From: Bdellovibrionota bacterium
GTDB lineage: Bacteria > Bdellovibrionota_C > UBA2361 > OMII01
DNA length: 64,000 nucleotides
Reading direction: 5' to 3'
NCBI GenBank assembly: GCA_044345405.1
Contig: JBIJBE010000009.1
Coordinates: forward strand, 28,773-92,772
Position numbers and translations under genes: made by a program. Positions 22,042-64,000 of this stretch are shown here, one piece after another. The notes beneath the pieces were generated by a model. It saw only the letters and a list, made by a program, of their open reading frames with translations, was not told where the DNA came from and did not search any database. Numbering within the stretch: position 1 is the stretch's first letter; each line of letters starts with the position of its first letter.

Positions 22042-22171
22042 GCTGAAAAGGCCTTGGTGCGCATGTCGAACCGGAGGAACCTTACGCCACATGAGGCGCG
22101 GTCCGCTGCCGACAGTTGGGACCGATGTATCGAGAATATGAGAGAAAGGTTGTGCTCGCGTTATATGAGGC

Positions 22172-22748
22172 GGCGGTCAGGAGCTCACGTAGGTGCGCTA
22201 CGAGGGACGAGCTGCCCGCCCTCCCGGATCACGGGTCAACTCGGGCCGGAACTCGCGCGCGTAATGTTCGTGTGGCTTCCGGCCCGTCAGTAGACGGTTC
22301 CTCCGGGGGCGACGCCGCCATCTTTGCATCGTGGGGCACGGCGGTCAGGAATGACCGCCCTCCCGATTTACGGGTCAAGACGGGCCTTCATATTTCACCG
22401 TCCTCGCATGAGACCGTTCCGGGGGCCCGTGTCCACACGGGCCGGAAGTCGAACGATAATTTCGGGGCGAGTTCCGGCCCGTCGGGAGACGGGCCCTCCG
22501 GGGGAAAACGTCGCCATCTTTGCGTCGTGGGGCACGGCGGTCAGGAATGACCGCCCTCCGGATTTACGGGTCGAGACGGGCCCTCCGGGGGAAAACGCCG
22601 CCATCTTTGCGTCGTGGGGCACGGCGGTCAGGAATGACCGCCCTCCGGATTTACGGGTCGAGACGGGCCCTCCGGGGGGAGAATGTCACCATTTTCATCT
22701 CCCGCAATGCGGCGGTCAGGAATGACCGCCCTCCGGGATCACGGGTCG
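22172..22748. repeat. Cluster of REP-like palindromes with an 87-bp tandem amplification
   Basis: GGCGGTCAGGAATGACCGCC(CTCC) at 22340, 22536, 22623 and 22711; GGCCCGT(C/G)-N4-(G/C)ACGGGCC at 22424 and 22476; tandem units start at 22486, 22573 and 22660. Confidence 0.9.
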
Positions 22749-22879
22749 TACTATCTGAAATCACCGGACCACTACGAAAAACCCGTAGCCACCAAAACAC
22801 GCTCGAGGCTACAGGAATCCCCTGCTTTCCCATAACCATTACTGGGACATGCTCGTATTCGGGCATTGGGGGGGATTAT

Positions 22880-25800
22880 ATGAGTTCAATTTCAACGCAC
22901 GCGACACCGCGTCCTGAAACCGTATCTACTACCGACGTTGTTGAGGTATCGCGCGTTCAGAACGGCGACGACAAGCTCGCGCAGCCATCGGCGTCACGCG
23001 CGTCGAGTGCACAGCAGTCAGTAGCTCAGGAGCTCAGGGTATTTTTAGGTGCTCACTGGGAATCGCAGGCTGTAAAGGAACTCTACGAAGAGCTGAAAGC
23101 TGACCGCGTTACACCTGACAACATTCCGGCGACCTTCCTTGAGTCTCAACGGATCGTGAATCCCCTTTCACCTGAGGGTGTCACGTTCCAGAACTCGATG
23201 GAGCAGCTCACCAAACGGCTCCTTCCCGAGATCGATCAAAAAGCTCATCCAATCACATTCGTTATCGCCGACGCCCAGCAAGAAAACGCCTTCATTATCA
23301 CAACCCCACAGCAGAGCCTCATTTGCTTCGACCGCAAACTTCTCGCGACCTTCGACAACCTCGACCAGCTCTCGTGGGTACTCCTCCACGAGCTTACCCA
23401 TCTTCAATATAAGGACCTGTTTGGAGCGGTTCCCGCCTCTCAAACTGAGGAGGCAGCATGTGACCTCCGTCCCCTTATGAAGATGCACGACGCGGGACTC
23501 AATCCGGCGGAAGCTGAAGCATACGCGATAAAGATGGCGAAGACCAAACAGCCGGCGTGGCTCTCAATGGTTGACGCTCACGGACTTCCTCCTTTTCGAG
23601 TAGACGCCATTCAGAAAGGACTCGCGGCGTTGCGACATTCTCGGGGTAAGCTTAAAGAGGGCACGGAGCCTCTTCCCGATCCCCTCCAAGTGGATGGCGG
23701 GTTACGGGGAGCTCGACACGAGTCATTTGTCGACCTGAAACTAAAAGCGACCCAGTATGCCGAGGGAACAACCCTTGAAAAGGTGAGGATACTTCACTCC
23801 ATGCTTCCAGACCTGGAAGCGAGGTTTCACCATCGCGCGGACGATATGGCAAAGCGGGTTCGAAAGCTCATCGTAGCCGAATCTGACAAAGAGACACGAG
23901 TGGTACTCGCTCAGCTGATGGACTCACTCCTCGACAATCCACCCGCATTTAACGCGCTTCACGTTCATCTTCGCTCCGCTCTGGACGGTGCGCATCCGAA
24001 AAAGATCCGCTACTACGCCCCTCGACTTCTGCAGGTAGCCAAAGCGGCGAAAGCTTTTATCGAAGCCGACGATGACACGACGGCACAGGAGAAGGCGGCG
24101 GCCGCTAGCCATCTCATCAAGACACTCGAAGACCTCCCCGCTTGGCAATCAATTAATTGGGGCACCGTGGATCTGCCACACTTTGCACTCCCCGATGAAC
24201 GTGAGTATAAGCGAGCGATCAAGGAGGCGAAATCCTCAGGGGATGACGTCGTATTTCCATGGCACGAACTCGCCGAGGCCGCGAGCAGCGAGAATCAGAT
24301 AGGGCGCGCGTTGCTCTGCCTTGGTACGTGGGATGACCGAATTCCTCTCAACGCCGGAAACGAGGACCTTACCTGGATGGATGCGCATTTGCGGCTTGCC
24401 AAGCAAAGCTCGGGCCATTCCCATCACTCGTATGAGTCAACTATTTCGACACCGCGAACGGACGAGGGAGAGAACTCCCGCTTTCAGCTAATAACGAATG
24501 GTGGTGGACTCATCAAAAAAGTAGACCCGCTGGCTACAGACCGAGACACCGTAAAACGGGATGTCGCGAACAGAATTACGGTCGAGCTCGAGCGAGCGAG
24601 ACTTGAGGCGGAAACAAGTGTCGCTATCGCAACCGTCCCCTCTGAAGAATTACCGAGTTCAAGCCGGGAGCGGACCCTTTCATTCCTGAGCCTCCCGTAT
24701 AGTGAATTCATGAAGGACCCGTACGCGCACCTGCGGGTGAACGAGGTGTTGCTGTGTCCCCCATCGTACATTTCACCGAGCGGCTCCGCTGGACGATTAC
24801 GGTCGCAGCTGCGGGACCTCATGGCACTTACGACAAACTCAGCGCGCTCACTTCTGCGCTACTTCGACGGCATGCTTGACGTTACCTCCGAACCCGAGCG
24901 GACGACGTATCGCGAGTTCGTGCGGGACTTTTTCCTAAACGAGACGACTCCCTTTAACTTTCAAACCGTAGTGGAACGACAGTTTGAGGATAATAGCTAC
25001 TCCAACATCTTCCAATATGTGCGATGGGCCGGTAACGATACGCACCAACTCTTTAGCCTTCAAGAAAAAGGACTCATCTTTTCCGAATATCACGAGGGGG
25101 GGGCCCTCACGCTGGGCCGCAACGCCGCTGGGATGCGCAAACCTGAGACGGTCGACGAGCTCCGCCATGCGCTCGACACCTATCTTGAGATGACGGGCTT
25201 GCATGACCACACGGAAAACTCCAAAGTCGATCTCTCTTTATTTACAAGTGAAGTTATCTCGGCTGAGGTTGCTGAGTTTCTCCGTGACCATCGAGACGCG
25301 GAGGGACTCCATCGACTTCTGAGCTCGCATGGCCACTGGCTCCGCGACGTCTATCGGGAGGCCTCCTTTGACCAGATATTCGTCGAGTACTTCAAGCATG
25401 AAAAATCGTGGCCAACCGACGCGATGACACTTGGAGCGATATATCGCGCAATCGAGGGACTTGGCATCTTCCCCAACGAGTTATGGCGAGCCTCATTCGC
25501 GGTTCGGGTATTGGAGAGCGTAGACGCCACAACCGATCTCCAAACACGAGTCGATGCCCTTGAGAATCTCCTCTTAGGAACGCCACCAAAAGATGTGGAC
25601 ATCCGCGAAGGGGCGATCGCCCGGTGGGTCACCTCGATGGCGACGATGTACGGCGATGACCACACAGCTTCATGGAACTCCTCGGACTGTCCATATCTCG
25701 CGACGATTCAACCGGTCTTGGACCGAGTTGCAGGGGAGGCGCATTCATCCATACGGGGAGAGATGCTCGACGCCTTGGGCAATCGGATACTGGCGCAACG

Positions 25801-27832
25801 CCAGGTGAGTCACGCGATTGAGCGGGCGATCCTTGGACCGATCGACAATGCCGCCACACAAAGCACGGGAGCCGCGTACGGAGGGCTTCAAGCGGGCTTT
25901 ATGATTATTGGCGAAGCGAAGGAGAACCGCTTTAAAACGATTCATTTCCTTACGCGCCCCTTGACGGACAAACGTATCAAGGCGTTCTCAAAATTGGTTA
26001 TCAACGAGGGGATGGCAACCTCACAGATGCTCGATGCTGATGACCTGTCAGGTATCGACTCCCCTCGAAACCGACGTCGTATACAGCTCGAATGCAAGCG
26101 TATTCATGAGAACTTCTGGCGGGCTCCGATAGGGTATCGCGCGGCTTTTCTGGAAGAGCTCATGATGCCCGCCGCGGCGCGTTTACGGGACCTTCAAGCT
26201 GGAACTCAGAAAACCTTCACCAACGCCTGCGATTTCGTTATATCCGAGCTTCTTCCACTTAAGGACAGGCACGACCGGCCGATCAAATACGCGCCCGAGG
26301 CCCAACGGATCTTGAGGGCGTTTCTTGCCGATGGGGTCCTTGACCACCGACAGCAGCCGATCTTTCTCTCAGCGTTGATGGCCGCCGCGCAACGTTCCAA
26401 CGAGGAGCGAGGTCGCTTAAGCGTCGGGCAGATCCTCGCCTCTATCTTCGACAACATGGGTCCAGCATGGCGTAAATTTGGACAGGCGATCGCCAATCAC
26501 CCAAGCACTCCCCTCGATATCGCTCGCGATATGGAGCCACTCAAAGGGAAGCAATCTGTTACTCGCGCTCAAGCGTGGGCACTCTACGAACATACGGTGC
26601 CGGAAGATATCCGTATACAGAACCCACGACTTGGACCGGTGCTTGAATCCGCGTCCTTCTTCACCGCTGTTGATGCCGGGAACGAGGTGTTTACGTTCCT
26701 GACGCCGAAAGCTCTCGTACGAGCGGAGGATGGATTCTCCATTATGGAGAGCTTTGTCGCGGAGCTTCGGAAAGCGGAGGATTCGCTCTCACAGGTCGCA
26801 CCCGCGGTCGCGGAGATGGTGTCCAGCGCGCGAACGAGCGCTATCCTGGAGACGAATGGACGGGTTGGTGCCGCTCAGGCTGATGCGATGCGAGCCCGCT
26901 ATAATGAACTCACCGTTACGATCGGGAATATGAAGTTCCCCTTCTCTACCGCCGCGTGGAGTGATCACGGTCCGGAGTTTCGTCGCATGCAGAAGATGAA
27001 AGGTCCGACCTTTAACGACGTTCCATCCACAACACCAGAGGAGATCGAGCATAAACGGCACGTCGCGAAAACTATCGTGTACGTTGAGCTGCGAAATATC
27101 CTCTCTGGAAACGCGTTCTGCGTCGACCGACACGGTCGTAACATTCGGGTCGATGGAAACTCGGTTGGACATTTTGACCACGGAGCGGTTCACGCCGTTG
27201 TGCGGGATAAGAAGGGCAAGGAGGTACACCCACTTGAGGCGGAGCCAGCCCTCGTTGGCGGTGGAACGGTTGAGATTCCGGGTGCGAGCGGGACGGAGAA
27301 GCTGCAACTCGCGGAGGCGTTGTACAGCGCGTACACGCAGCTTAATGGCGGGCAGCCCCTCGCTGTTGTTATGCACAACGAGATTGAGAAGGCTCGCGCC
27401 GCTACCGGCGCGACGCCCGAGTACCTTATCCGGGTGGAGCGAGCGTTGTTGGCACTCAACGATTGTTTCAAGTGTCTCAACGGGCAGGACATGAAGGATA
27501 TACTCGGAAGCCTCTACCTGAACGGGGATATCGACAAAACCATAACGACAACCCTAGAGAGCAAGATTAAGAGCGAGAAGATCGGCGGCTTCGCTGGACT
27601 CTTCGTAAACGCGTCTAAGGTTATTCGCGGTGAGATCGAGAAGTCGGTCGTTGAGCGAATGACGGTTTCTCAGGGCTCTCAGAACCAGGGAGCTCGCTCT
27701 CAGTGGCACGACAACGCGATGAATCGTCAGGACGTGCCGTCGTTGCTTACGACGAGGGATTTCCGGCAGAAGAAGAAGGAAGAATCTGGCAGGGCGCGGA
27801 AGCGGAGCTTGACGGTGCCTACGTTGGAGTAA
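22880..27832 (+). CDS. 1650-aa protein: M48-like zinc peptidase, long helical region, AarF/UbiB (ABC1)-like atypical kinase domain
   Basis: LLHELTH...EEAACD; MGPAWRKFGQ, ESAS, VDRHGRNI, HFDHG. The first 120 aa of the ORF track are translated repeat, so the start is placed at ATG 22880. Confidence 0.8.
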   Translation: MSSISTHATPRPETVSTTDVVEVSRVQNGDDKLAQPSASRASSAQQSVAQELRVFLGAHWESQAVKELYEELKADRVTPDNIPATFLESQRIVNPLSPEGVTFQNSMEQLTKRLLPEIDQKAHPITFVIADAQQENAFIITTPQQSLICFDRKLLATFDNLDQLSWVLLHELTHLQYKDLFGAVPASQTEEAACDLRPLMKMHDAGLNPAEAEAYAIKMAKTKQPAWLSMVDAHGLPPFRVDAIQKGLAALRHSRGKLKEGTEPLPDPLQVDGGLRGARHESFVDLKLKATQYAEGTTLEKVRILHSMLPDLEARFHHRADDMAKRVRKLIVAESDKETRVVLAQLMDSLLDNPPAFNALHVHLRSALDGAHPKKIRYYAPRLLQVAKAAKAFIEADDDTTAQEKAAAASHLIKTLEDLPAWQSINWGTVDLPHFALPDEREYKRAIKEAKSSGDDVVFPWHELAEAASSENQIGRALLCLGTWDDRIPLNAGNEDLTWMDAHLRLAKQSSGHSHHSYESTISTPRTDEGENSRFQLITNGGGLIKKVDPLATDRDTVKRDVANRITVELERARLEAETSVAIATVPSEELPSSSRERTLSFLSLPYSEFMKDPYAHLRVNEVLLCPPSYISPSGSAGRLRSQLRDLMALTTNSARSLLRYFDGMLDVTSEPERTTYREFVRDFFLNETTPFNFQTVVERQFEDNSYSNIFQYVRWAGNDTHQLFSLQEKGLIFSEYHEGGALTLGRNAAGMRKPETVDELRHALDTYLEMTGLHDHTENSKVDLSLFTSEVISAEVAEFLRDHRDAEGLHRLLSSHGHWLRDVYREASFDQIFVEYFKHEKSWPTDAMTLGAIYRAIEGLGIFPNELWRASFAVRVLESVDATTDLQTRVDALENLLLGTPPKDVDIREGAIARWVTSMATMYGDDHTASWNSSDCPYLATIQPVLDRVAGEAHSSIRGEMLDALGNRILAQRQVSHAIERAILGPIDNAATQSTGAAYGGLQAGFMIIGEAKENRFKTIHFLTRPLTDKRIKAFSKLVINEGMATSQMLDADDLSGIDSPRNRRRIQLECKRIHENFWRAPIGYRAAFLEELMMPAAARLRDLQAGTQKTFTNACDFVISELLPLKDRHDRPIKYAPEAQRILRAFLADGVLDHRQQPIFLSALMAAAQRSNEERGRLSVGQILASIFDNMGPAWRKFGQAIANHPSTPLDIARDMEPLKGKQSVTRAQAWALYEHTVPEDIRIQNPRLGPVLESASFFTAVDAGNEVFTFLTPKALVRAEDGFSIMESFVAELRKAEDSLSQVAPAVAEMVSSARTSAILETNGRVGAAQADAMRARYNELTVTIGNMKFPFSTAAWSDHGPEFRRMQKMKGPTFNDVPSTTPEEIEHKRHVAKTIVYVELRNILSGNAFCVDRHGRNIRVDGNSVGHFDHGAVHAVVRDKKGKEVHPLEAEPALVGGGTVEIPGASGTEKLQLAEALYSAYTQLNGGQPLAVVMHNEIEKARAATGATPEYLIRVERALLALNDCFKCLNGQDMKDILGSLYLNGDIDKTITTTLESKIKSEKIGGFAGLFVNASKVIRGEIEKSVVERMTVSQGSQNQGARSQWHDNAMNRQDVPSLLTTRDFRQKKKEESGRARKRSLTVPTLE

Positions 27833-27863
27833 TCCGGAACTCACGCACGTCATTTTCGTACGG

Positions 27864-27975
27864 CTTCCGGCCCGTCGGGAGACGGGCCCTCCCCACCAGC
27901 ATCAGTGCGTCACGCAACACGGCGGTCAGGAATGACCGCCCTCCCGCACCATGGGTCGATACGGGCCCTCCGGGG
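27864..27975. repeat. REP-like palindromes
   Basis: GGCCCGTCGGGAGACGGGCC at 27869..27888; GGCGGTCAGGAATGACCGCC at 27921..27940. Confidence 0.9.
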
Positions 27976-28081
27976 TGCAAACGCCAACATCTTGCCCTCA
28001 CAACTTTTCACCCCCACCTCCGAAATGTAGCTACCGACACCCATGCTCTGCAGCTTACTCAAATTTTCTTGCCTCTATTAT

Positions 28082-28095
28082 TATCATATATGATA
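28082..28095. promoter_or_regulatory. Palindrome TATCATATATGATA overlapping the toxin start (TA operator candidate)
   Basis: Perfect 14-bp palindrome. Confidence 0.5.
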
Positions 28096-28437
28096 CTTAT
28101 TAAATATCAGATCCTTGAATACGTATCATCGCGGGGAACAAATCCATTTCGAGACTGGCTTGAAACCCTTCCTCGAATGATAGCGGCAAGGGTCCAAGCA
28201 CGGTTATATGCGGCAGAGCTTGGCAATTTGGGAGACTATAAGGGAGTTGGGGATGGGTTGTTTGAGCTACGCCTCCATATAGGCCCGGGCTATCGCATCT
28301 ACTTTGGTAGGGAGTCCCGAACCGTTCTCATCCTACTTGGAGGAGGAACTAAGGGCACCCAGACACGAGATATCGCAAGGGCTCGGCGGAACTTTACAAT
28401 GTATCGAGGAACCAACCATGTCACGACGAAGCGCTGA
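28090..28437 (+). CDS. RelE/HigB-like addiction module killer protein
   Basis: PFRDWL...GNLGDYKGVGDGLFELRLHIGPGYRIYF...LLGGGTKGTQ.RDI..A. Confidence 0.92.
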   Translation: MILIKYQILEYVSSRGTNPFRDWLETLPRMIAARVQARLYAAELGNLGDYKGVGDGLFELRLHIGPGYRIYFGRESRTVLILLGGGTKGTQTRDIARARRNFTMYRGTNHVTTKR

Positions 28438-28729
28438 TTGGAACGCAGGTTTGGCTCAGGACCTCCGAGAGAAGGGCTTTGCGCAGGAATTTATTCAAGG
28501 CTGCCTTGAAGAAGGTCTTTCTCTACAGGAAGCGCTCGCGAAGGTCGTGCGCGCATATGGCGTGAAGGAATTCGCTATTCGAGCCAAGCTACCGAGCTCA
28601 AACGTACTGCGAGCGATTAGCCCAGGACACAATCCTACCAGTGAAACGTTGAACGCGATCCTAAAGCCATTTGATTTGTGCCTGTCGGTGGCACCTCGGC
28701 GGAAGGTGCGGGGAGCGGGGTCGCGGTAA
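28418..28729 (+). CDS. Addiction module antidote (HTH) protein
   Basis: ALAKVVRAYGV...GHNPTSETLNAILK; overlaps the toxin gene. Confidence 0.88.
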   Translation: MSRRSADWNAGLAQDLREKGFAQEFIQGCLEEGLSLQEALAKVVRAYGVKEFAIRAKLPSSNVLRAISPGHNPTSETLNAILKPFDLCLSVAPRRKVRGAGSR

Positions 28730-28748
28730 TAACCCCATGCGAGGGATC

Positions 28749-29012
28749 CGGAGGACCCGTCTCCTGGTGCCCTGTAGCTCTAGCGAAGGGGGGCTGACGG
28801 ATCCTCCGGGGTACAAATGCCAACATCGGTGCGTCACGCAACACGGCGGTCAGGAATGACCGCCCTCCCTTATCACGGGCCGGCACAACGGGAGGGCGAC
28901 CGTTTCCCCGCCGCGAAAGCTTTGGGGAACAGGTCGCGGTCGCCGAAAAATCACGCATCGCTACAATATTTCGCTTCACGCAACACGGCGGTCAGGAATG
29001 ACCGCCCTCCGG
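28749..29012. repeat. REP-like inverted doublets, two with loop insertions
   Basis: Canonical copies at 28845..28864 and 28987..29006; expanded-loop copies at 28749..28809 and 28891..28944. Confidence 0.85.
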
Positions 29013-29043
29013 GGTCATGGGGCGCAATATCGACATGGGGAAT

Positions 29044-29080
29044 AAAAAAAGGGGGCCAAATATCAAAGATATTCGCCCCC
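29044..29080 (-). terminator. Rho-independent terminator of the MFS gene
   Basis: GGGGGCGAATATC-TTT-GATATTTGGCCCCC followed by T7 on the minus strand. Confidence 0.8.
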
Positions 29081-46962: not shown

Positions 46963-47121
46963 GGCGAAACCTGTGTCCAGTAGGCGAATGGGTTGTACGG
47001 CACCGATGATTGTACCATGCGGTTGAGGGGGCGGGCTCTAAGGAAAATTAGGAGGGGTTAGGGGGGCGGAAGTGTTGGGGATGTATGGGGGACGGGATGC
47101 CATGACGAACCCGCAACCATC

Positions 47122-47179
47122 GGAGGGCGACCAGGATCCCCCTTCGCTAAAGCTACGGCGGACAAGCTGCTCGCCCTCC
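47122..47179. repeat. REP-like palindrome with a 31-nt second-family hairpin in its loop
   Basis: GGAGGGCGACCAGGA-[TCCCCCTTCGCTAAAGCTACGGCGGACAAGC]-TGCTCGCCCTCC. Confidence 0.85.
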
Positions 47180-47281
47180 CTGGTCACGGGTTTAATATCC
47201 ATCGTGACATGTAACCCCCGTACAGGGTACCGTTCTGAGGCGCTAAACGCTTGATGAAACAATAAAACAAAGGGACTCGTT

Positions 47282-51857: not shown

Positions 51858-54412
<2,555 letters not shown>

Positions 54413-54420
54413 TTTATTGT

Positions 54421-54694
54421 GACCGGGCACGCCGGATGCCGCTCATTCCTGAGCGCCGTGTTGCGTGAGGCAAAGATCGTTCGCTATGCGCGGCGTTGTG
54501 GCGACCAGGAATGGTCGCCCTCCGAATTACCGAGCTCAAAAGAAAGGGGCGTCACAGTCGACCCGGCACGCCGGAGGGCGCTCATTCCTGAGCGCCGTGT
54601 TGCGTGAGGCAAAGATCGTTCGCGATGCACGGCGTTGTGACGACCAGGACCCGCCTGCGCTTTGCTACGTCGAGGCAAGCTGGTCGCCCTCCCG
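54421..54694. repeat. Two tandem REP doublets (period 139 bp), the second with a loop insertion
   Basis: GGCGCTCATTCCTGAGCGCC-type at 54438 and 54577; GGCGACCAGGAATGGTCGCC at 54500; filled copy 54639..54692. Confidence 0.9.
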
Positions 54695-54720
54695 ATTACT
54701 GGGTCAAATGGAATGAATTC

Positions 54721-55824
54721 CTAGGGCAACCCAACCCGATTCAAAAACTCCACCTGTATCTCCCCCCACATCCGATACCCCTTAGCATTGAAGTGCATGT
54801 CGCCTGGAATGTAGATCTCTTGAGGCGGGGTGGTACCGAGCTTCTGTTTAAAGGCTTCGACAGGGTTAAGGAATGGAACGTTTTCCTTTGCGCACACGGA
54901 AGCTATGTCGTTCATCGGTTCAAGGGACCACTTCCCTTGGAGCTGCTGAAGATGTGGGACCGCGGTTACCACTATCTTAATTCCGCTCGCTTTCGCGAGG
55001 TTTACAACACGGCTGAGCATATCCATGCTGTGGAGCACGTCCTGCCGAGTCTGTGGAGAGCGCCTAGGGTCGCACCATGCGAAGGCTGCTGGCACTAAGC
55101 CACTATCACGCGCATAGTTGCGTCGATGCGACACAGCCTGAACTACTAACTTTACCGCGGCAGACCTGTCGGAGAGCCAACTGAGAACGCGTTGCGAGGG
55201 GGTGATCTCTTCAAGTCCATGCTCCGTTCTGCGATGGGTCCCGAGCATTGGATGTCCAGGTGGACAGGCGACCGGATCTCCCTGGGTGTCGGTTCGTAGG
55301 GTAGCGCTATAAAGGGAGTCATCAAAGACATCGGTCATATCCACATTCACAACTACCAAGTCTGGGCGATAGGCGAGAACTTTGGTCTTGAGGAGAAGAT
55401 AGTAAAGGGTTGGAGCGTACGATGCGGTGCCAGCATTGAGCACATCAACAGTTTCATATCCGGGAACACGAAATGACCGTTCCACAATCGCCGGGACTGA
55501 GTCGGCCTCAGGGCACGTTCCCTCAATAAACGAATCACCGAGATACGCGATACGATAGGCTCGCTCTGCCTTCTGCTGAGATACCTCACGCTCCATGATA
55601 AAACCCTGGCTGTTCACTTTTCGCGTGAAGGGGGGGATTCCCGCCTTCTCGAAATCGCGCACGATACGGGTTTGGCCCGGAATCCAAACGTGATTGAGCA
55701 CCGCGTCAGTCATAAGGATTGGTGACGCACTCTTGTAAAAAGAGCGCGCACTCAGCTCAGCGACAACCAAAAAAATGATCGTCGGTCCGAGCCAAATGCA
55801 CGCTCTTTTGAGAAACGCTTTCAG
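54721..55824 (-). CDS. SGNH/GDSL hydrolase family membrane-anchored protein
   Basis: LGDSF, NAG, DMHFN; frame open to CTG 55824 with AAGGAG 6 nt upstream (the ORF track start is 55770). Confidence 0.82.
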   Translation of the reverse strand: MKAFLKRACIWLGPTIIFLVVAELSARSFYKSASPILMTDAVLNHVWIPGQTRIVRDFEKAGIPPFTRKVNSQGFIMEREVSQQKAERAYRIAYLGDSFIEGTCPEADSVPAIVERSFRVPGYETVDVLNAGTASYAPTLYYLLLKTKVLAYRPDLVVVNVDMTDVFDDSLYSATLRTDTQGDPVACPPGHPMLGTHRRTEHGLEEITPSQRVLSWLSDRSAAVKLVVQAVSHRRNYARDSGLVPAAFAWCDPRRSPQTRQDVLHSMDMLSRVVNLAKASGIKIVVTAVPHLQQLQGKWSLEPMNDIASVCAKENVPFLNPVEAFKQKLGTTPPQEIYIPGDMHFNAKGYRMWGEIQVEFLNRVGLP

Positions 55825-61119: not shown

Positions 61120-61479
61120 GAGGACGTCTTACCTTATGAGTGAGAAACCCACGCTGGTGGAGCGCAGTGGGTGTGAGGGATCGAGTAACACGACAGGGGG
61201 AGGATCGCAACTTAGGAAATTGAAATGACTCACAAATTCGGGTCGAGAAGCCATACAATCACCTAGGGAGCTCGGTTAGGCACCGCCCTACCCTGCGCGC
61301 CCCGGTTCCTGCCAGGGCGACCGTCCCCAGTCGCCGAAATGTCGCGCAGGTCATAAGGCATTTGCTTGACGCAAATCGGCGAACGAGAGACGGCAATCCA
61401 CGGGGCGGCGAGCGGTGAATTTCAAGGAACAGACATATAATTACGGGGACTTGAGAAACGAAGGCTTCAAAGACTTCAA

Positions 61480-61545
61480 CCTACGCTAAAGCTTCGGTGG
61501 ACAGGCAAGCGGATTGCGCGCCGTAGCTGGTAAGAGCGCAGGTGG
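61480..61545. repeat. Free-standing inverted pair of second-family hairpins
   Basis: CCTACGCTAAAGCTTCGGTGGACAGG followed by an inverted GCCGTAGCT...AGCGCAGG copy. Confidence 0.65.
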
Positions 61546-61718
61546 GAACGCCTCAAACTTCAGACTGAGAACTGCAAACATAAGCCTCGTACAAAAGTGG
61601 TAAGTCGCTGCACGCGCAGAAGTAGTATGAGGCTCTGAATATGGGTAGCGCTTTACTCACAAATAGGTGTTCCTTTTTGAAGGTATACCTTTAGGAGAGC
61701 GGCTATGCCCTCCTTAGC

Positions 61719-64000
61719 TCACTTTGAACCCGCACTGACCGTCCGATGAGTCCTGCTGATATTCTGAGCTCGCATGAGCTTGTAGGCTTCAGGAAGTTTA
61801 AAGAGGGAGGAAGTCTCCGAATCGGTTGTTAAAAACCTTCGATAAACGACTCGCGACTGATTGTCGGCCCAGAATACGCCGGGAGCCTGTTGGTTACTTT
61901 CGCGTGTAAAGATCCCCGTTCCGATGGTCGCGTTTCGAGAGATGTAGAATAGCGGGAACGCGAAGCTTCCCGCCATTGTTGTTATTCTTATCTGTCGACC
62001 GTTAGAAGTAGTCCCTTCGAGGACCGCAACGAGTGGCACTTGCGTTCCGCCACGGCGAATCACGAATCCACGAAGGAACTGATTGTATCCCGTGAATAGT
62101 TTGCGGGCGCCAGATGTATCGAAAGCGGCTAGAGCGGCCTTGCGCCTGGTAGTTCTAGGTACGCTAAAAAGAATTTCATCTTTACCGTCTGCATCAGTAT
62201 CGCCACAGCCTAGTAGGTTCCCATTGCCAAGCTTGTCTAGGGTCACTACTCGGGTTGTAGAATTGTCGAAGCTCCTGAATGAGAGTTGACGCTTTTCCCT
62301 ATTGAACACGGCGAGAGCACTGCCCCCGTTTGTAAAGAAGTCGCAACCTGAGATGATAGTTTCCCCAACATCTCCAAATATCGCTGTTGAAGTGGTTCCC
62401 GTTGACGAACGTTTTATGTTCCATTGGAGCCGTTCACCAGCTACCGCTACAGCAGCAAGATCCGTCACTCCATCGTTATCATAGTCGGCTGGTGCGGGGT
62501 AACGACCCGTCAGTTCGAAGGTGGTCCAGGAGGCTTGCGAGGCTCTCCGAGTCTTGAAGCGCATCTTACTTCCTTCTCTACGCCATGCAGTGATAGCGGT
62601 ATCTCCGGTGGCGGAGAAATCAAGAGGTGCTGCATCAAGGACTGTAACCATAGTTGGCGCAGACGGGGGGCCTCTGTTTCCCGACTCATCAATAAAGATG
62701 GCTACAATCTGTCGTATTCCTGCCGAAAGCGGGGGAAGATTGAACTCCCCGACCCCCGTTGCAGGGCCCGAACCAGGAGTTGTGGCTGAGGCAGTTCCGA
62801 CAACGATGCCGTCGACTTGAATTTCCACAATATACCTTGGATTTCCTGTTACCGAGATGTTGATTGATTGGCCAGATACTACTACAGGCCCATTTCCGTC
62901 GGATGCTTGAGGAGGAGCATCATTAAAGGCAGGAGCAGATGGCTGCGGAATCGCTGGTAGCACCGGTGGTGGTGCAATTGGTGTAGCGATCGGTGCGGGT
63001 GTCTCGGTCGGGATAGCCGCAGGCGTATTCGTATAGGTCGGCGTTACCGTTGGTGTGTTCGTTGGAGTGCTCGTGAAGGTCGGAGTATTTGTCGGCGTTG
63101 CAGTCGGAGTCTCCGTTGGCGTTGCAGTCGGCGTAGCCGTAGGAGTCGGGGTGGGTGTCGGGCCACTTAGGGAGCTGACAACCTCTCCGGAAGAGCTACC
63201 ACTTCGGTTCCACAACGCCGCGATCTGGGAAGAGCCCCCCGAATCGAGCGCGCTTGAGACTGAGAGCGGGCTCCCCGTAGAGCTCGCCGTGGCAGGACTT
63301 GACCACGAGGTGTAGGGGCTACTCGCCTCTGAGTAGCTAACGACACCACTATCAACGAACCAAGCGGCAAGGTTTGATGTGGCGGTATAGTATCCTCCGG
63401 CGACTGAAGCCGCGGTGCCCGTTAGTACCGTCGTAGCGCTACTCCACGAAGCCGACGGCGAGCCTGAATAGGTCTTCATCATCACATCGTTGTTACTATC
63501 GATGTAGAAGAGGTGTGCTGCGCCGCTTGAGCCGGCTACGAGGGAGGCGGTGGAGTTGGCGAACTGGCTCTTGACTGCTACGAGCTGTACGTAACTCAGA
63601 GCCACACCCACACCCCCCGCATAGAGGTTTCCACTTGAGTCAATGGCGAGGGCGGACACGTCGCTATTCATCCCCGTCCCCAGCGCAGACCACGAGGTGC
63701 CGTTCCATTTGGCTATCCTGTTTACGGTGGTGCCCCCGGCCGTCACGAAATTTCCCCCGGCATAGAGGTTTCCGCTTGAGTCAATGGCGAGGGCGTTCAC
63801 TGTGTTACTTGTCCCCGTTCCCAGCGCAGACCACGAGGTACCGTTCCATTTGGCTATGTAGTTTACGGTGGTGCCCCCGGCCGTCGTGAAAGCTCCCCCG
63901 GCATACAGGTTTCCACTTGAGTCAATGGCGAGGGCGTTCACTGTGCCACTCGTCCCCGTTCCCAGCGCAGACCACGAGGTCCCGTTCCATTTTGCTATCC
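61719..64000 (-). CDS. Large surface protein (5' end outside the window): beta-propeller-like repeats, Pro/Thr linker, FG-GAP-like C-terminal domain
   Basis: WNGTSWSALG repeats, PTPTP tract, DYDNDGVTD and DTDADGKDE motifs; frame open to the window end. Confidence 0.88.
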   Translation of the reverse strand, partial: IAKWNGTSWSALGTGTSGTVNALAIDSSGNLYAGGAFTTAGGTTVNYIAKWNGTSWSALGTGTSNTVNALAIDSSGNLYAGGNFVTAGGTTVNRIAKWNGTSWSALGTGMNSDVSALAIDSSGNLYAGGVGVALSYVQLVAVKSQFANSTASLVAGSSGAAHLFYIDSNNDVMMKTYSGSPSASWSSATTVLTGTAASVAGGYYTATSNLAAWFVDSGVVSYSEASSPYTSWSSPATASSTGSPLSVSSALDSGGSSQIAALWNRSGSSSGEVVSSLSGPTPTPTPTATPTATPTETPTATPTNTPTFTSTPTNTPTVTPTYTNTPAAIPTETPAPIATPIAPPPVLPAIPQPSAPAFNDAPPQASDGNGPVVVSGQSINISVTGNPRYIVEIQVDGIVVGTASATTPGSGPATGVGEFNLPPLSAGIRQIVAIFIDESGNRGPPSAPTMVTVLDAAPLDFSATGDTAITAWRREGSKMRFKTRRASQASWTTFELTGRYPAPADYDNDGVTDLAAVAVAGERLQWNIKRSSTGTTSTAIFGDVGETIISGCDFFTNGGSALAVFNREKRQLSFRSFDNSTTRVVTLDKLGNGNLLGCGDTDADGKDEILFSVPRTTRRKAALAAFDTSGARKLFTGYNQFLRGFVIRRGGTQVPLVAVLEGTTSNGRQIRITTMAGSFAFPLFYISRNATIGTGIFTRESNQQAPGVFWADNQSRVVYRRFLTTDSETSSLFKLPEAYKLMRAQNISRTHRTVSAGSK
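63620..64000 (-). repeat. Intragenic 141-bp (47-aa) tandem repeats
   Basis: Near-identical units start at 63620, 63761 and 63902. Confidence 0.9.

Follow-up and report, generated by a model that had tools for sequence, protein, structure and literature searches.

The 64-kb window analysed here (the whole stretch G000:C60:28773-92772, taken from contig C60 of the source genome G000, a 3.59-Mb Bdellovibrionota assembly of 85 contigs with 55% GC) carried an array of repetitive extragenic palindromes (REPs) at 54421-54706, between convergent open reading frames (ORFs); these REPs belonged to a family designated REP1, and one of them held in its loop a hairpin-forming sequence of 31 nt, hereafter the inner unit. 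As the first-pass annotation, made from the letters of the window alone, had described, the array consisted of ~139-bp units present as two direct copies (starts 54421 and 54560). Each unit was a head-to-head REP doublet resembling a REPIN (REP doublet forming hairpin), with the organization inverted REP, 43-nt spacer, forward REP, and tail. Direct comparison of the two copies gave 84/90 identical bases (6 differences) from the unit start to CCAGGA, after which unit 1 had a single A and unit 2 had 31 nt (54650-54680, CCCGCC...GGCAAGC), giving the REP loops AGGAAT in unit 1 versus AGGA plus 31 nt plus T in unit 2. The sequence 3′ of this site, TGGTCGCCCTCC, was the same in both units (12/12 identical), and past it the tails diverged (9 differences in 30 bases compared from TGGTCGCCCTCC onward). 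The pair is one case of a duplicated REP doublet in which one copy differs from the other by the inner unit. An ORF upstream of the pair (window 52268-54412, + strand, 714 aa) resembled, judged by eye from its translation, a tRNA-guanine transglycosylase with a C-terminal extension.

The 139-bp two-copy array was absent from the list that Tandem Repeats Finder returned for the window, and both of its copies were recovered from lake water: contigs from four independent runs matched the empty copy (e.g. 54455-54531) with 0-1 differences, contigs of four independent runs reproduced the filled copy (e.g. 54599-54888), again with 0-1 differences, and the right REP1 of unit 1 (54500..54523) was bridged unchanged by contigs of 3/4 runs. 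An assembly artefact is unlikely as the source of the empty/filled pair, because contigs of four independent runs reproduced both copies. The sequencing runs considered numbered 24, of which 0 were RNA.

The REP1 family was collected from G000 by a scan for complementary arms of 7 nt that end in a CCCTCC tail; it gave 758 candidates, and a looser hairpin scan with a background of ~9 matches per loop length served only as a pool. Loop length 6 accounted for 299/758 candidates, and loop lengths 30, 31, 35, and 36 for 13, 17, 22, and 24, respectively, with 1-11 candidates at each other length from 7 to 98; the long loops were not a product of chance, because these four lengths stood above the other lengths in the genome scan. 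The short REP1, GGCGNNC-AGGAAT-GNNCGCC-CTCC, was present in ~300 copies with compensatory stem variants (GGCGGTC 84, GGCGACC 65, GGCGCGC 34, and GGCGAGC 22) and with a loop variant GGGGAC in 18 copies, and ~70 further REP1 had an imperfect 24-31 nt hairpin in the loop, in either orientation. REP1 had the attributes of a REP, being a short GC-rich imperfect palindrome of extragenic location with at least ~100 copies, and its surroundings showed REPIN-like inverted doublets together with arrays of the bacterial interspersed mosaic element (BIME) kind. The conserved 5′ GT(A/G)G head, a REP hallmark in the portion of Nunvar 2010 (PMC2817692) drawn on here, was lacking from REP1, the conserved tag of which was the 3′ CCCTCC tail, then about GATTACGGGTC. 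The exact short pattern occurred 221 times in G000 and was present in 3/24 other sampled members of the genus (G011 66, G015 24, and G020 87) and in 0/16 genomes sampled from other families of the order; G044 and G046, which lay outside the 24-genome sample, also carried REP1.

The long-form loops aligned as a single family with the consensus GCTTGTCCCCCGTAGCTTTAGCGAAGGGGGA, which can be read as GCTTG-TCCCCC-G(T/A)AGC-TTTA-GCGAAG-GGGGA and in which an imperfect hairpin comes after a conserved 5′ leader, over a length of 30-31 nt. Within the leader (alignment A1), C2 was invariant and T4 and G5 were conserved at 90% or more; the hairpin was made up of two stems (6 bp and 2 bp) separated by a purine-rich 3x3 internal loop and capped by a tetraloop, and 93.8% of its cells were paired. 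A second, shorter inner type had the form CCTGTCCCGAGCA..GTCGAGGGAG. The inner unit was REP-like in its own right, with a conserved leader, an imperfect hairpin, and many dispersed copies (79 matches in G000 to its covariance model R1, applied at E ≤ 0.01 within the genus and at E ≤ 0.001 across the order); most copies were singlets, and head-to-head pairs were found in G002, G012, and G024 as well as in the window at 61480-61547. REP and inner unit together were predicted to fold, as single-stranded DNA, into one extended hairpin, the best of which was 47118-47182 on the minus strand (-19.2 kcal/mol, z -4.35); the fold of the copy in the 54421-54706 array was no better than that of shuffled sequence (z about -0.85).

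The profile search with nhmmer, using profiles built from the inner unit alone without REP sequence (E ≤ 0.5), gave 93 non-redundant inner copies in G000, which fell into two groups: (i) 70 between REP1 arms (38+14 of long type and 15+3 of short type) and (ii) 23 outside REP1, comprising 3 in other palindromes (e.g. C45:24336 within GGTAGGGCCCG...CGGGCCCTACC) and 20 free or in other settings, among them tandem arrays (C56/C82 and C36), a tRNA-Asp fragment (C62), and a ~200-bp repeat present four times. REP1 loops, which total only ~2 kb of the genome, were accordingly enriched in the unit genome-wide, as the first-pass annotation had expected. The unit was also found within a REP 5′ arm, between loop and arm, in stem strands of tRNA D-arm and T-arm fragments, and in plain intergenic DNA. 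The unit at 54650..54680 had relatives at C76:94353, C8:15969, C65:20898, and C66:78517, and the other inserts claimed for the window were all found; they lay in two further REP1 loops, in another palindrome, in an inverted REP1, and in a free stem-less pair (Table 1).

With respect to the REP, 32 long-type copies were reverse (AGGA-unit-T), ~15 were forward (AG-unit-GAAT), and 4 lay in REPs with both tails, and 17/17 oriented copies of the short type were forward. Subfamilies, defined by apical sequence, cut across orientation and context: (i) subfamily b was reverse at C18:41466 and C18:86754 and forward at C26:100363; (ii) subfamily c was forward at C57 (twice), C40:46110, and C22:37643, reverse at C18:58834, and free at C21:51364 and in the C56/C82 arrays; and (iii) subfamily f was reverse in REP1 and also present in the other palindrome at C45. 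An identical 30-nt unit, GCTTGTCCCTCGTAGCGGAGCGAAGTGGGA, was shared by GGCGACC stems (C15 twice and C35) and GGCGGTC stems (C65 three times), which differ at 4/14 stem positions. Incongruent histories of insert and stem are supported by this comparison.

Empty and filled sites were compared in five contexts with a known empty state, and in each of them the filled form equalled the empty form plus exactly 30 nt, with zero target duplication: (i) the second REP family REP2, in which GGCCCGTC-GGGAG-ACGGGCC of 20 nt in G020 corresponded to a 50-nt form at the orthologous G011 site; (ii) tRNA-Asp, a downstream 3′-end copy of which was interrupted at GGTTCGAGTCCC^GTCGGCTCCGCCA in G000 relative to the intact gene 250 nt away, the same 3′ fragment with the unit being found also in G012 and G014 (+30 nt when the G012 fragment was compared to the G000 gene); (iii) tRNA 5′ halves, namely upstream partial copies in G019/G045, G048, and G033 (the last from another family), all broken at ...TAGCT^CAG... 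and, in G019, G045, and G033, adjoined by the same tRNA 5′ sequence in intact form, which was scored as tRNA by Rfam in G033; (iv) REP1 with forward subfamily c, with a loop of 36 versus 6 nt; and (v) REP1 with GRGGAC loops, with 30 nt between loop and 3′ arm. Junction ambiguity was at most 1 nt (G or C). The interrupted tRNA copy was a duplicate fragment in every case. Such precise insertion without target-site duplication is the behaviour of IS200/IS605-type elements, and the absence of duplication at junctions with a known empty site departs from that of miniature inverted-repeat transposable elements, with their terminal inverted repeats and target-site duplications. The 5′ flanks of the unit varied (..CAG, ..CTG, ..CCCG, ..CTCC, or an arm end) and held no fixed tetra- or pentanucleotide; what the hosts had in common was the ability to form a hairpin.

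The occupancy of orthologous sites was then compared among relatives, the intergenic region of the 54421 pair being syntenic in seven of them. At this locus G000 had an empty unit 1 and a unit 2 with a reverse inner unit, and G046 had a single REP doublet that shared its spacer with G000 and its tail with G000 unit 1, the right REP containing a forward inner unit of another subfamily; of the other relatives, G044 had a short REP1, and a REP2 was present in G020 (empty) and in G011 (filled). At the 47137 locus G000 had a two-tailed REP holding one inner unit, G010 was without REP, and G044 had a full REP doublet whose left loop contained two oppositely oriented inner units belonging to different subfamilies. 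Among the free copies, those at C83:59899 and C21:51364 were absent from the matching spacers of five relatives each, these spacers being too diverged for junctions so that absence alone was scored, and a 20-kb synteny search found a usable orthologous REP for none of the sites 22183, 28765, and 28902. Taken together, the orthologous comparisons need at least several independent in-place gains or losses of the unit.

The inner unit was detected by R1 in 26/34 other genomes of the genus (0-57 copies each), including genomes without the exact REP1 pattern (G012 57, G019 22, G002 17, G003 11, and G022 11), and in 49/91 genomes and 23/39 genera of the order. It reached tens of copies in some other families (G057 51, G051 32, G032 29, G055 28, and G033 28), with sequences near-identical to the consensus (e.g. 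G033 and G039, 50.5 bits). The unit is thus older and far more widespread than REP1, because it was found across the order, including genomes without REP1.

Table 1. Coordinates of the REP1 array, the inner units, and associated features (window positions unless a genome, contig, or locus is given)
Feature	Position	Strand	Remarks
Unit 1: REP doublet of degenerate inverted REP1, 43-nt spacer, empty forward REP1, and tail	54421..54559	+	Before the loop, 84/90 bases shared with unit 2
Unit 1 left REP1 in inverted orientation; head degenerate (GGATGC), + strand loop ATTCCT	54434..54457	-	Read directly
Unit 1 right REP1, empty: GGCGACC-AGGAAT-GGTCGCC-CTCC	54500..54523	+	DNA fold -10.1 kcal/mol, z -5.35
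Unit 2: same REP doublet, right REP1 filled	54560..54706	+	Direct comparison
Unit 2 left REP1 in inverted orientation; loop empty, stem GGCGCTC	54573..54596	-	Read directly
Unit 2 right REP1, filled: GACGACC-AGGA-(31 nt)-T-GGTCGCC-CTCC	54639..54692	+	Spanned by contigs of 4 runs
Inner hairpin unit of subfamily e, minus strand GCTTGCCTCGACGTAGCAAAGCGCAGGCGGG, reverse relative to the REP tail	54650..54680	-	nhmmer C60:83423-83452, E 0.16
REP1 with both tails (GGAGGG...CCCTCC), inner unit at 47137-47167 (31 nt)	47127..47180	.	R1 52.4 bits; minus-strand fold -19.2 kcal/mol, z -4.35
REP1 with stem GGCGGTC/GCCCGCC (one mismatch), partly degenerate inner unit at 22183-22212 (30 nt)	22172..22224	+	nhmmer E 0.13
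REP2-like palindrome CCGGAGGACCCGTC...GACGGATCCTCCGG, inner unit at ~28765-28794	28748..28809	+	Partial match C60:57546-57564
Inverted REP1, divergent inner variant at 28902-28931 (loop 30)	28891..28938	-	Genome scan
Inner-unit pair, head-to-head, without REP stems, inside ~200-bp repeat	61480..61547	.	Sequence and profile search
Array of 87 bp x3, empty REP1 units, BIME-like	22486..22748	+	Tandem Repeats Finder
tRNA 5′-half fragments interrupted by the unit	G019 L042, G045 L043, G048 L038, G033 L196 (about 1440-1560)		
tRNA-Asp 3′-end fragments interrupted at ...GTCCC^GTCGG...	G000 C62:27400-27470, G012 L080:925-975, G014 L045		
Y1_Tnp/RAYT-like ORF loci L001-L007	C18:70600-72000, C43:42450-43700, C52/C26/C67/C69/C22		

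Several further repeats were recorded beside these features. The ~200-bp repeat had four genomic copies (window 61440-61640, C40:12150-12330, C40:15650-15830 on the minus strand, and C84:8480-8660 on the minus strand), with a constant right part (GGGAACGCCTCAAAC.TCAGACTGAGAACTG...) and 1-3 inner units per copy, and the two inverted C40 copies enclosed 3.5 kb of metabolic-looking ORFs. The tandem arrays at contig ends (C56:1-105, C82:43-241, and C36:31967-32100; 84-bp and 106-bp period) contained one inner hairpin with constant flanks in each unit, and a REP1 with one inner unit in its 5′ arm and a second in its loop was present in three copies (C18:58794-58864, C52:949-1018, and C65:40749-40818). 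Pairs of filled REPs recurred every ~4.8 kb in C65:20885-40818 (20.9, 25.7, 30.5, 35.2, and 40.7 kb), a spacing that hints at a gene block in tandem with REP doublets at its joints. The 7-kb stretch 22043-29046 of the window was bounded in G000 by the REP arrays 22170-22750 and 28750-29010, and its flanking genes were only ~180 nt apart in G011 (C343), an arrangement suggestive of a gain or loss of DNA at clusters of REPs. Tandem Repeats Finder also reported a 141-bp unit x2.8 (88% matches) at 63613-64000, reaching the end of window and contig. At contig ends (C60 start, C45, C67, and C23), an 11-nt match to the short inner type lay in an IS-like repeat (IS, insertion sequence) and looked coincidental; this repeat, of at least ~160 bp and ending in TAGGGTGTTCCAGA (C60:1-165, outside the window; C45:1-200; C67 end; C23:240-460), is probably the terminus of an unassembled IS.

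These data are, on balance, probably best accounted for by an independent repeat of 30-31 nt that was repeatedly inserted into DNA capable of forming hairpins, as a discrete unit with no duplication, and was then copied together with its REPIN/BIME host, by a route that would involve single-stranded DNA and an enzyme of the HUH/Y1 type. The preferred host in G000 would be the REP1 apical loop, the others being the second REP family, other palindromes, and tRNA-arm fragments; the unit would move as single-stranded DNA through cleavage and strand transfer by a trans-acting HUH/Y1-type enzyme, either a REP-associated tyrosine transposase (RAYT) or an IS200/IS605-like one, extruded hairpins would supply the single-stranded target, and a composite REP, once made, would be copied with its REPIN/BIME host and so contribute much of the copy number. 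Because insertion was precise and free of duplication and appeared to depend on hairpins, and the leader outside the stem was conserved, the ends appear to be defined by an enzyme that is HUH/Y1-like more than DDE; a single-stranded intermediate, this enzyme class, and a preference for hairpins over mere tolerance of the unit there are what we infer from these features. The first-pass annotation had proposed a second miniature element targeting REP loops, and its independence and its repeated entry into loops both stood, given both orientations and junctions, the same subfamilies in free copies, and an occupancy that differed between species; its confinement to loops did not, and many composites had been amplified as units. 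More tentatively, the 30-nt hairpin may be the smallest self-contained transposition substrate, precisely excised and inserted as single-stranded DNA by a trans-acting HUH-type or other enzyme that would read hairpin structure (REP tips and tRNA arms) and not sequence, so that mosaic REPs would arise by nesting and the unit would have stayed near-constant across an order of predatory-type bacteria via co-evolution with the enzyme.

A number of observations weigh against repeated enzymatic insertion of the unit. All genomes compared were metagenome bins, which makes the repeat copy numbers lower bounds. No joint skipping the 31 nt, and hence no empty/filled polymorphism, was seen in the contigs of the four runs, a result of little weight since contigs drop rare variants. 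The junctions yielded no common target sequence, and the reverse-type junction in AGGAAT loops was not a clean insertion, with a net +30 and one loop base replaced; moreover, all reverse-type composites could stem from one event, the GAGGAC-CCC... and AGGAT-CCC... junctions being similar. Covariation in the hairpin was weak, with double changes in only 2 pairs, equalled by 31/500 shuffles, and conservation of sequence across the order is unusual for a purely selfish REP and may reflect a functional role or a binding protein that is itself conserved. The remaining observations of this kind concern the candidate enzymes. G000 encoded seven Y1_Tnp/RAYT-like ORFs of 326-357 aa, which belonged to three types (C18:70748-71821, C43:42631-43668, and a five-copy type with C67:31261-32241 as an example) and were each flanked by their own short tandem hairpin repeats, distinct from REP1 and from the inner unit (CTGTAGCCGGGCTAC and GGTAGCCCGGGTACAG for the five-copy type, TCGTCACTGGTGCCAGG for the C18 gene, and GGTACGGGGTTAC for the C43 gene); neither REP1 nor the inner unit was found beside any of these seven genes, in an 85-contig assembly from which a gene may have been missed, and two tail-motif matches within 1.2 kb of Y1 genes were without REP1 stem or loop. 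Among 27 Y1 loci of six genomes (75,398 bases, flanks included) a single match to the inner unit was found, the conserved tRNA-Asp fragment copy, and Y1_Tnp genes were present in 34/35 genus genomes whether or not the unit was, with no tracking between the two; the relatives had a Y1 type of ~225 aa. None of the 27 Y1/RAYT loci is specifically associated with the inner unit, and the enzyme writing short hairpins into hairpin loops that the first-pass annotation had postulated, with a HUH or RAYT gene flanked by the inner element, was not recovered in this set. The enzyme class is still plausible, Y1_Tnp genes being so common in the genus, and by analogy the unit might be linked to an enzyme like TnpA-REP. 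In the passages cited of Ton-Hoang 2012 (PMC3333891), this enzyme is active on single-stranded DNA only and requires a hairpin; its cleavage, at C^T, is of low specificity, and it also transfers strands, an activity proposed in the same passages as a source of BIME variants.

Four other explanations were weighed, the first three of which are weakened because the size was fixed at 30 nt in unrelated hosts and the unit was present without REP1. One or two old fusions of REP and inner unit might have been followed by REP/REPIN amplification and recombination or conversion, with no ongoing 30-nt insertion. Much here is in its favour: composites had been copied as wholes (GGCGGTC with subfamily a three times on C65, and pairs at C57, C78, and C52/C65), identical composites occupied 3-8 loci and were common to sister species, the subfamily-a composite being shared by G000, G011, and G020, the reverse-type junctions were all similar, and the runs showed no polymorphism. 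Amplification of composites in fact accounts for a good part of the 70 filled REP1 copies, because many composites were copies of each other. As the whole explanation it is nevertheless unlikely, since at least five unrelated hosts gained 30 nt each time, the unit was abundant in genomes without REP1, the same subfamilies were forward, reverse, and free, one orthologous loop held two different subfamilies, and REP stems of 7-11 bp offer very little homology for conversion; the filled copies, in other words, did not all descend from one ancestral composite.

Template switching without a dedicated enzyme, in which replication would stall at a hairpin and the nascent strand would visit another inner copy and return (a quasipalindrome-type event), is judged similarly improbable. 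The same ends and the same 30-nt length recurred in unrelated hosts and different families, where variable end points would be expected, and the GCTTG leader outside the hairpin was conserved as for a recognition element; these points outweighed the hairpin-forming nature of every host with a known empty state (REP1, REP2, palindromes, and tRNA D/T arms), the resemblance of the 1-nt junction ambiguity to microhomology, and the failure to find a linked enzyme among the 27 Y1 loci.

It is highly improbable that the long form is ancestral and that the short AGGAAT REP1 (the 54500 copy included) came about when the apical hairpin was deleted, to spread thereafter. Long palindromes do tend to be deleted, the short loop was very uniform (in G020, 87 exact short copies versus at most 1-2 long), and the more distant G046 was filled at the pair locus, but its unit was of opposite orientation and of another subfamily compared to that of G000 unit 2, forward and reverse inserts split AGGAAT at different points with the remnants left in place, two units occupied one orthologous loop, and the unit was found in genomes and hosts that never had REP1. 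Equally remote is the last alternative, a functional motif selected as a binding site or RNA element whose position at REP tips reflects its role, which would be compatible with any mode of spread and with the near-identity between families (G033 and G039) and the retention of the tRNA-Asp fragment copy in G000, G012, and G014 with pairing-preserving stem changes (CCCCCC/GGGGGG, CCAGCC/GGCTGG, and CCCGCC/GGTGGG), and against which stand the range of 0-79 copies within one genus, the poor fit of both orientations and many contexts to one transcript-level role, and the outcome of the Rfam searches (release 15 gave only a tRNA at gathering score in the window, and Rfam gave zero matches to the inner unit at E ≤ 1 in four unit-bearing loci); function and insertion are not mutually exclusive.

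Repeated insertion of a nested hairpin bears on how REPs and BIMEs originate, diversify, and spread, which is only partly understood, their mosaic structure having so far been explained mainly by models. G000 and its relatives provide a natural series of empty, filled, and doubly filled states at orthologous sites with a fixed 30-nt unit, and the unit itself is a concrete, very small substrate for testing enzymes of single-strand cleavage and strand transfer. If its movement is confirmed, it would fix a minimum size for insertable DNA units in bacteria, being among the smallest seen, and hairpin tips and tRNA-arm sequences would become structure-defined insertion targets. For annotation, 'long' and 'short' REP variants call for caution, as they can be nested composites of two families with separate histories. 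A small insertable hairpin nested in this way would be a new form of REP/BIME mosaicism, the mechanism given above being the part that we infer.

Compared to the REP/REPIN/BIME systems with RAYT (TnpA-REP of E. coli and the REPINs of Pseudomonas), REP1 was alike in its short GC-rich extragenic hairpins, ~370 copies, inverted doublets, and arrays, and mosaic variants are expected there from low-specificity cleavage and strand transfer of single-stranded DNA, as far as the passages cited of PMC3333891 go. The present case differed in that the sequence within the apical loop of another REP was a single 30-nt hairpin, not a REPIN, with ~70 such cases covering both orientations, that both the outer and the inner family were without the GT(A/G)G head and without a flanked RAYT gene found, and that the inner family was order-wide. 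The first-pass annotation had held such nesting to be undescribed, which is true in part: IS elements of five families target REPs according to the part of Tobes & Pareja 2006 (PMC1525189) cited here, and the REP-targeting IS (IS1397, ISKpn1, IS621 and other IS110-family elements, and ISPpu9/10; PMC1525189 and PMC12288879, in the sections relevant here) likewise place a mobile element inside a REP. Unlike the inner unit, which was 30 nt long, non-coding, and without target duplication, these IS are of 1-2 kb and have their own transposase, and a literature search turned up no account of a ~30-nt hairpin set inside REP loops or tRNA-arm fragments, though supplementary REP alignments might hold relevant cases. 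The IS200/IS605 elements and the palindrome-associated transposable elements ('peel and paste') shared with the inner unit the precise duplication-free insertion, the dependence on hairpins, and the presence of Y1 genes in the genome, and IS200/IS605 elements have neither inverted repeats nor flanking direct repeats (PMC3333891, in the same passages). The inner unit differed from them in having one hairpin in place of left and right subterminal ones, and no fixed target tetranucleotide was found for it. To our knowledge, the known miniature derivatives of IS200/IS605 are several-fold longer than 30 nt. The enterobacterial repetitive intergenic consensus (ERIC, or intergenic repeat unit, IRU) is likewise a hairpin-forming intergenic repeat with short forms and with longer forms that contain an extra block at a defined internal site. 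We know of no ERIC extra block that is an independent repeat family elsewhere, whereas the block inserted here was a dispersed, order-wide repeat in its own right.

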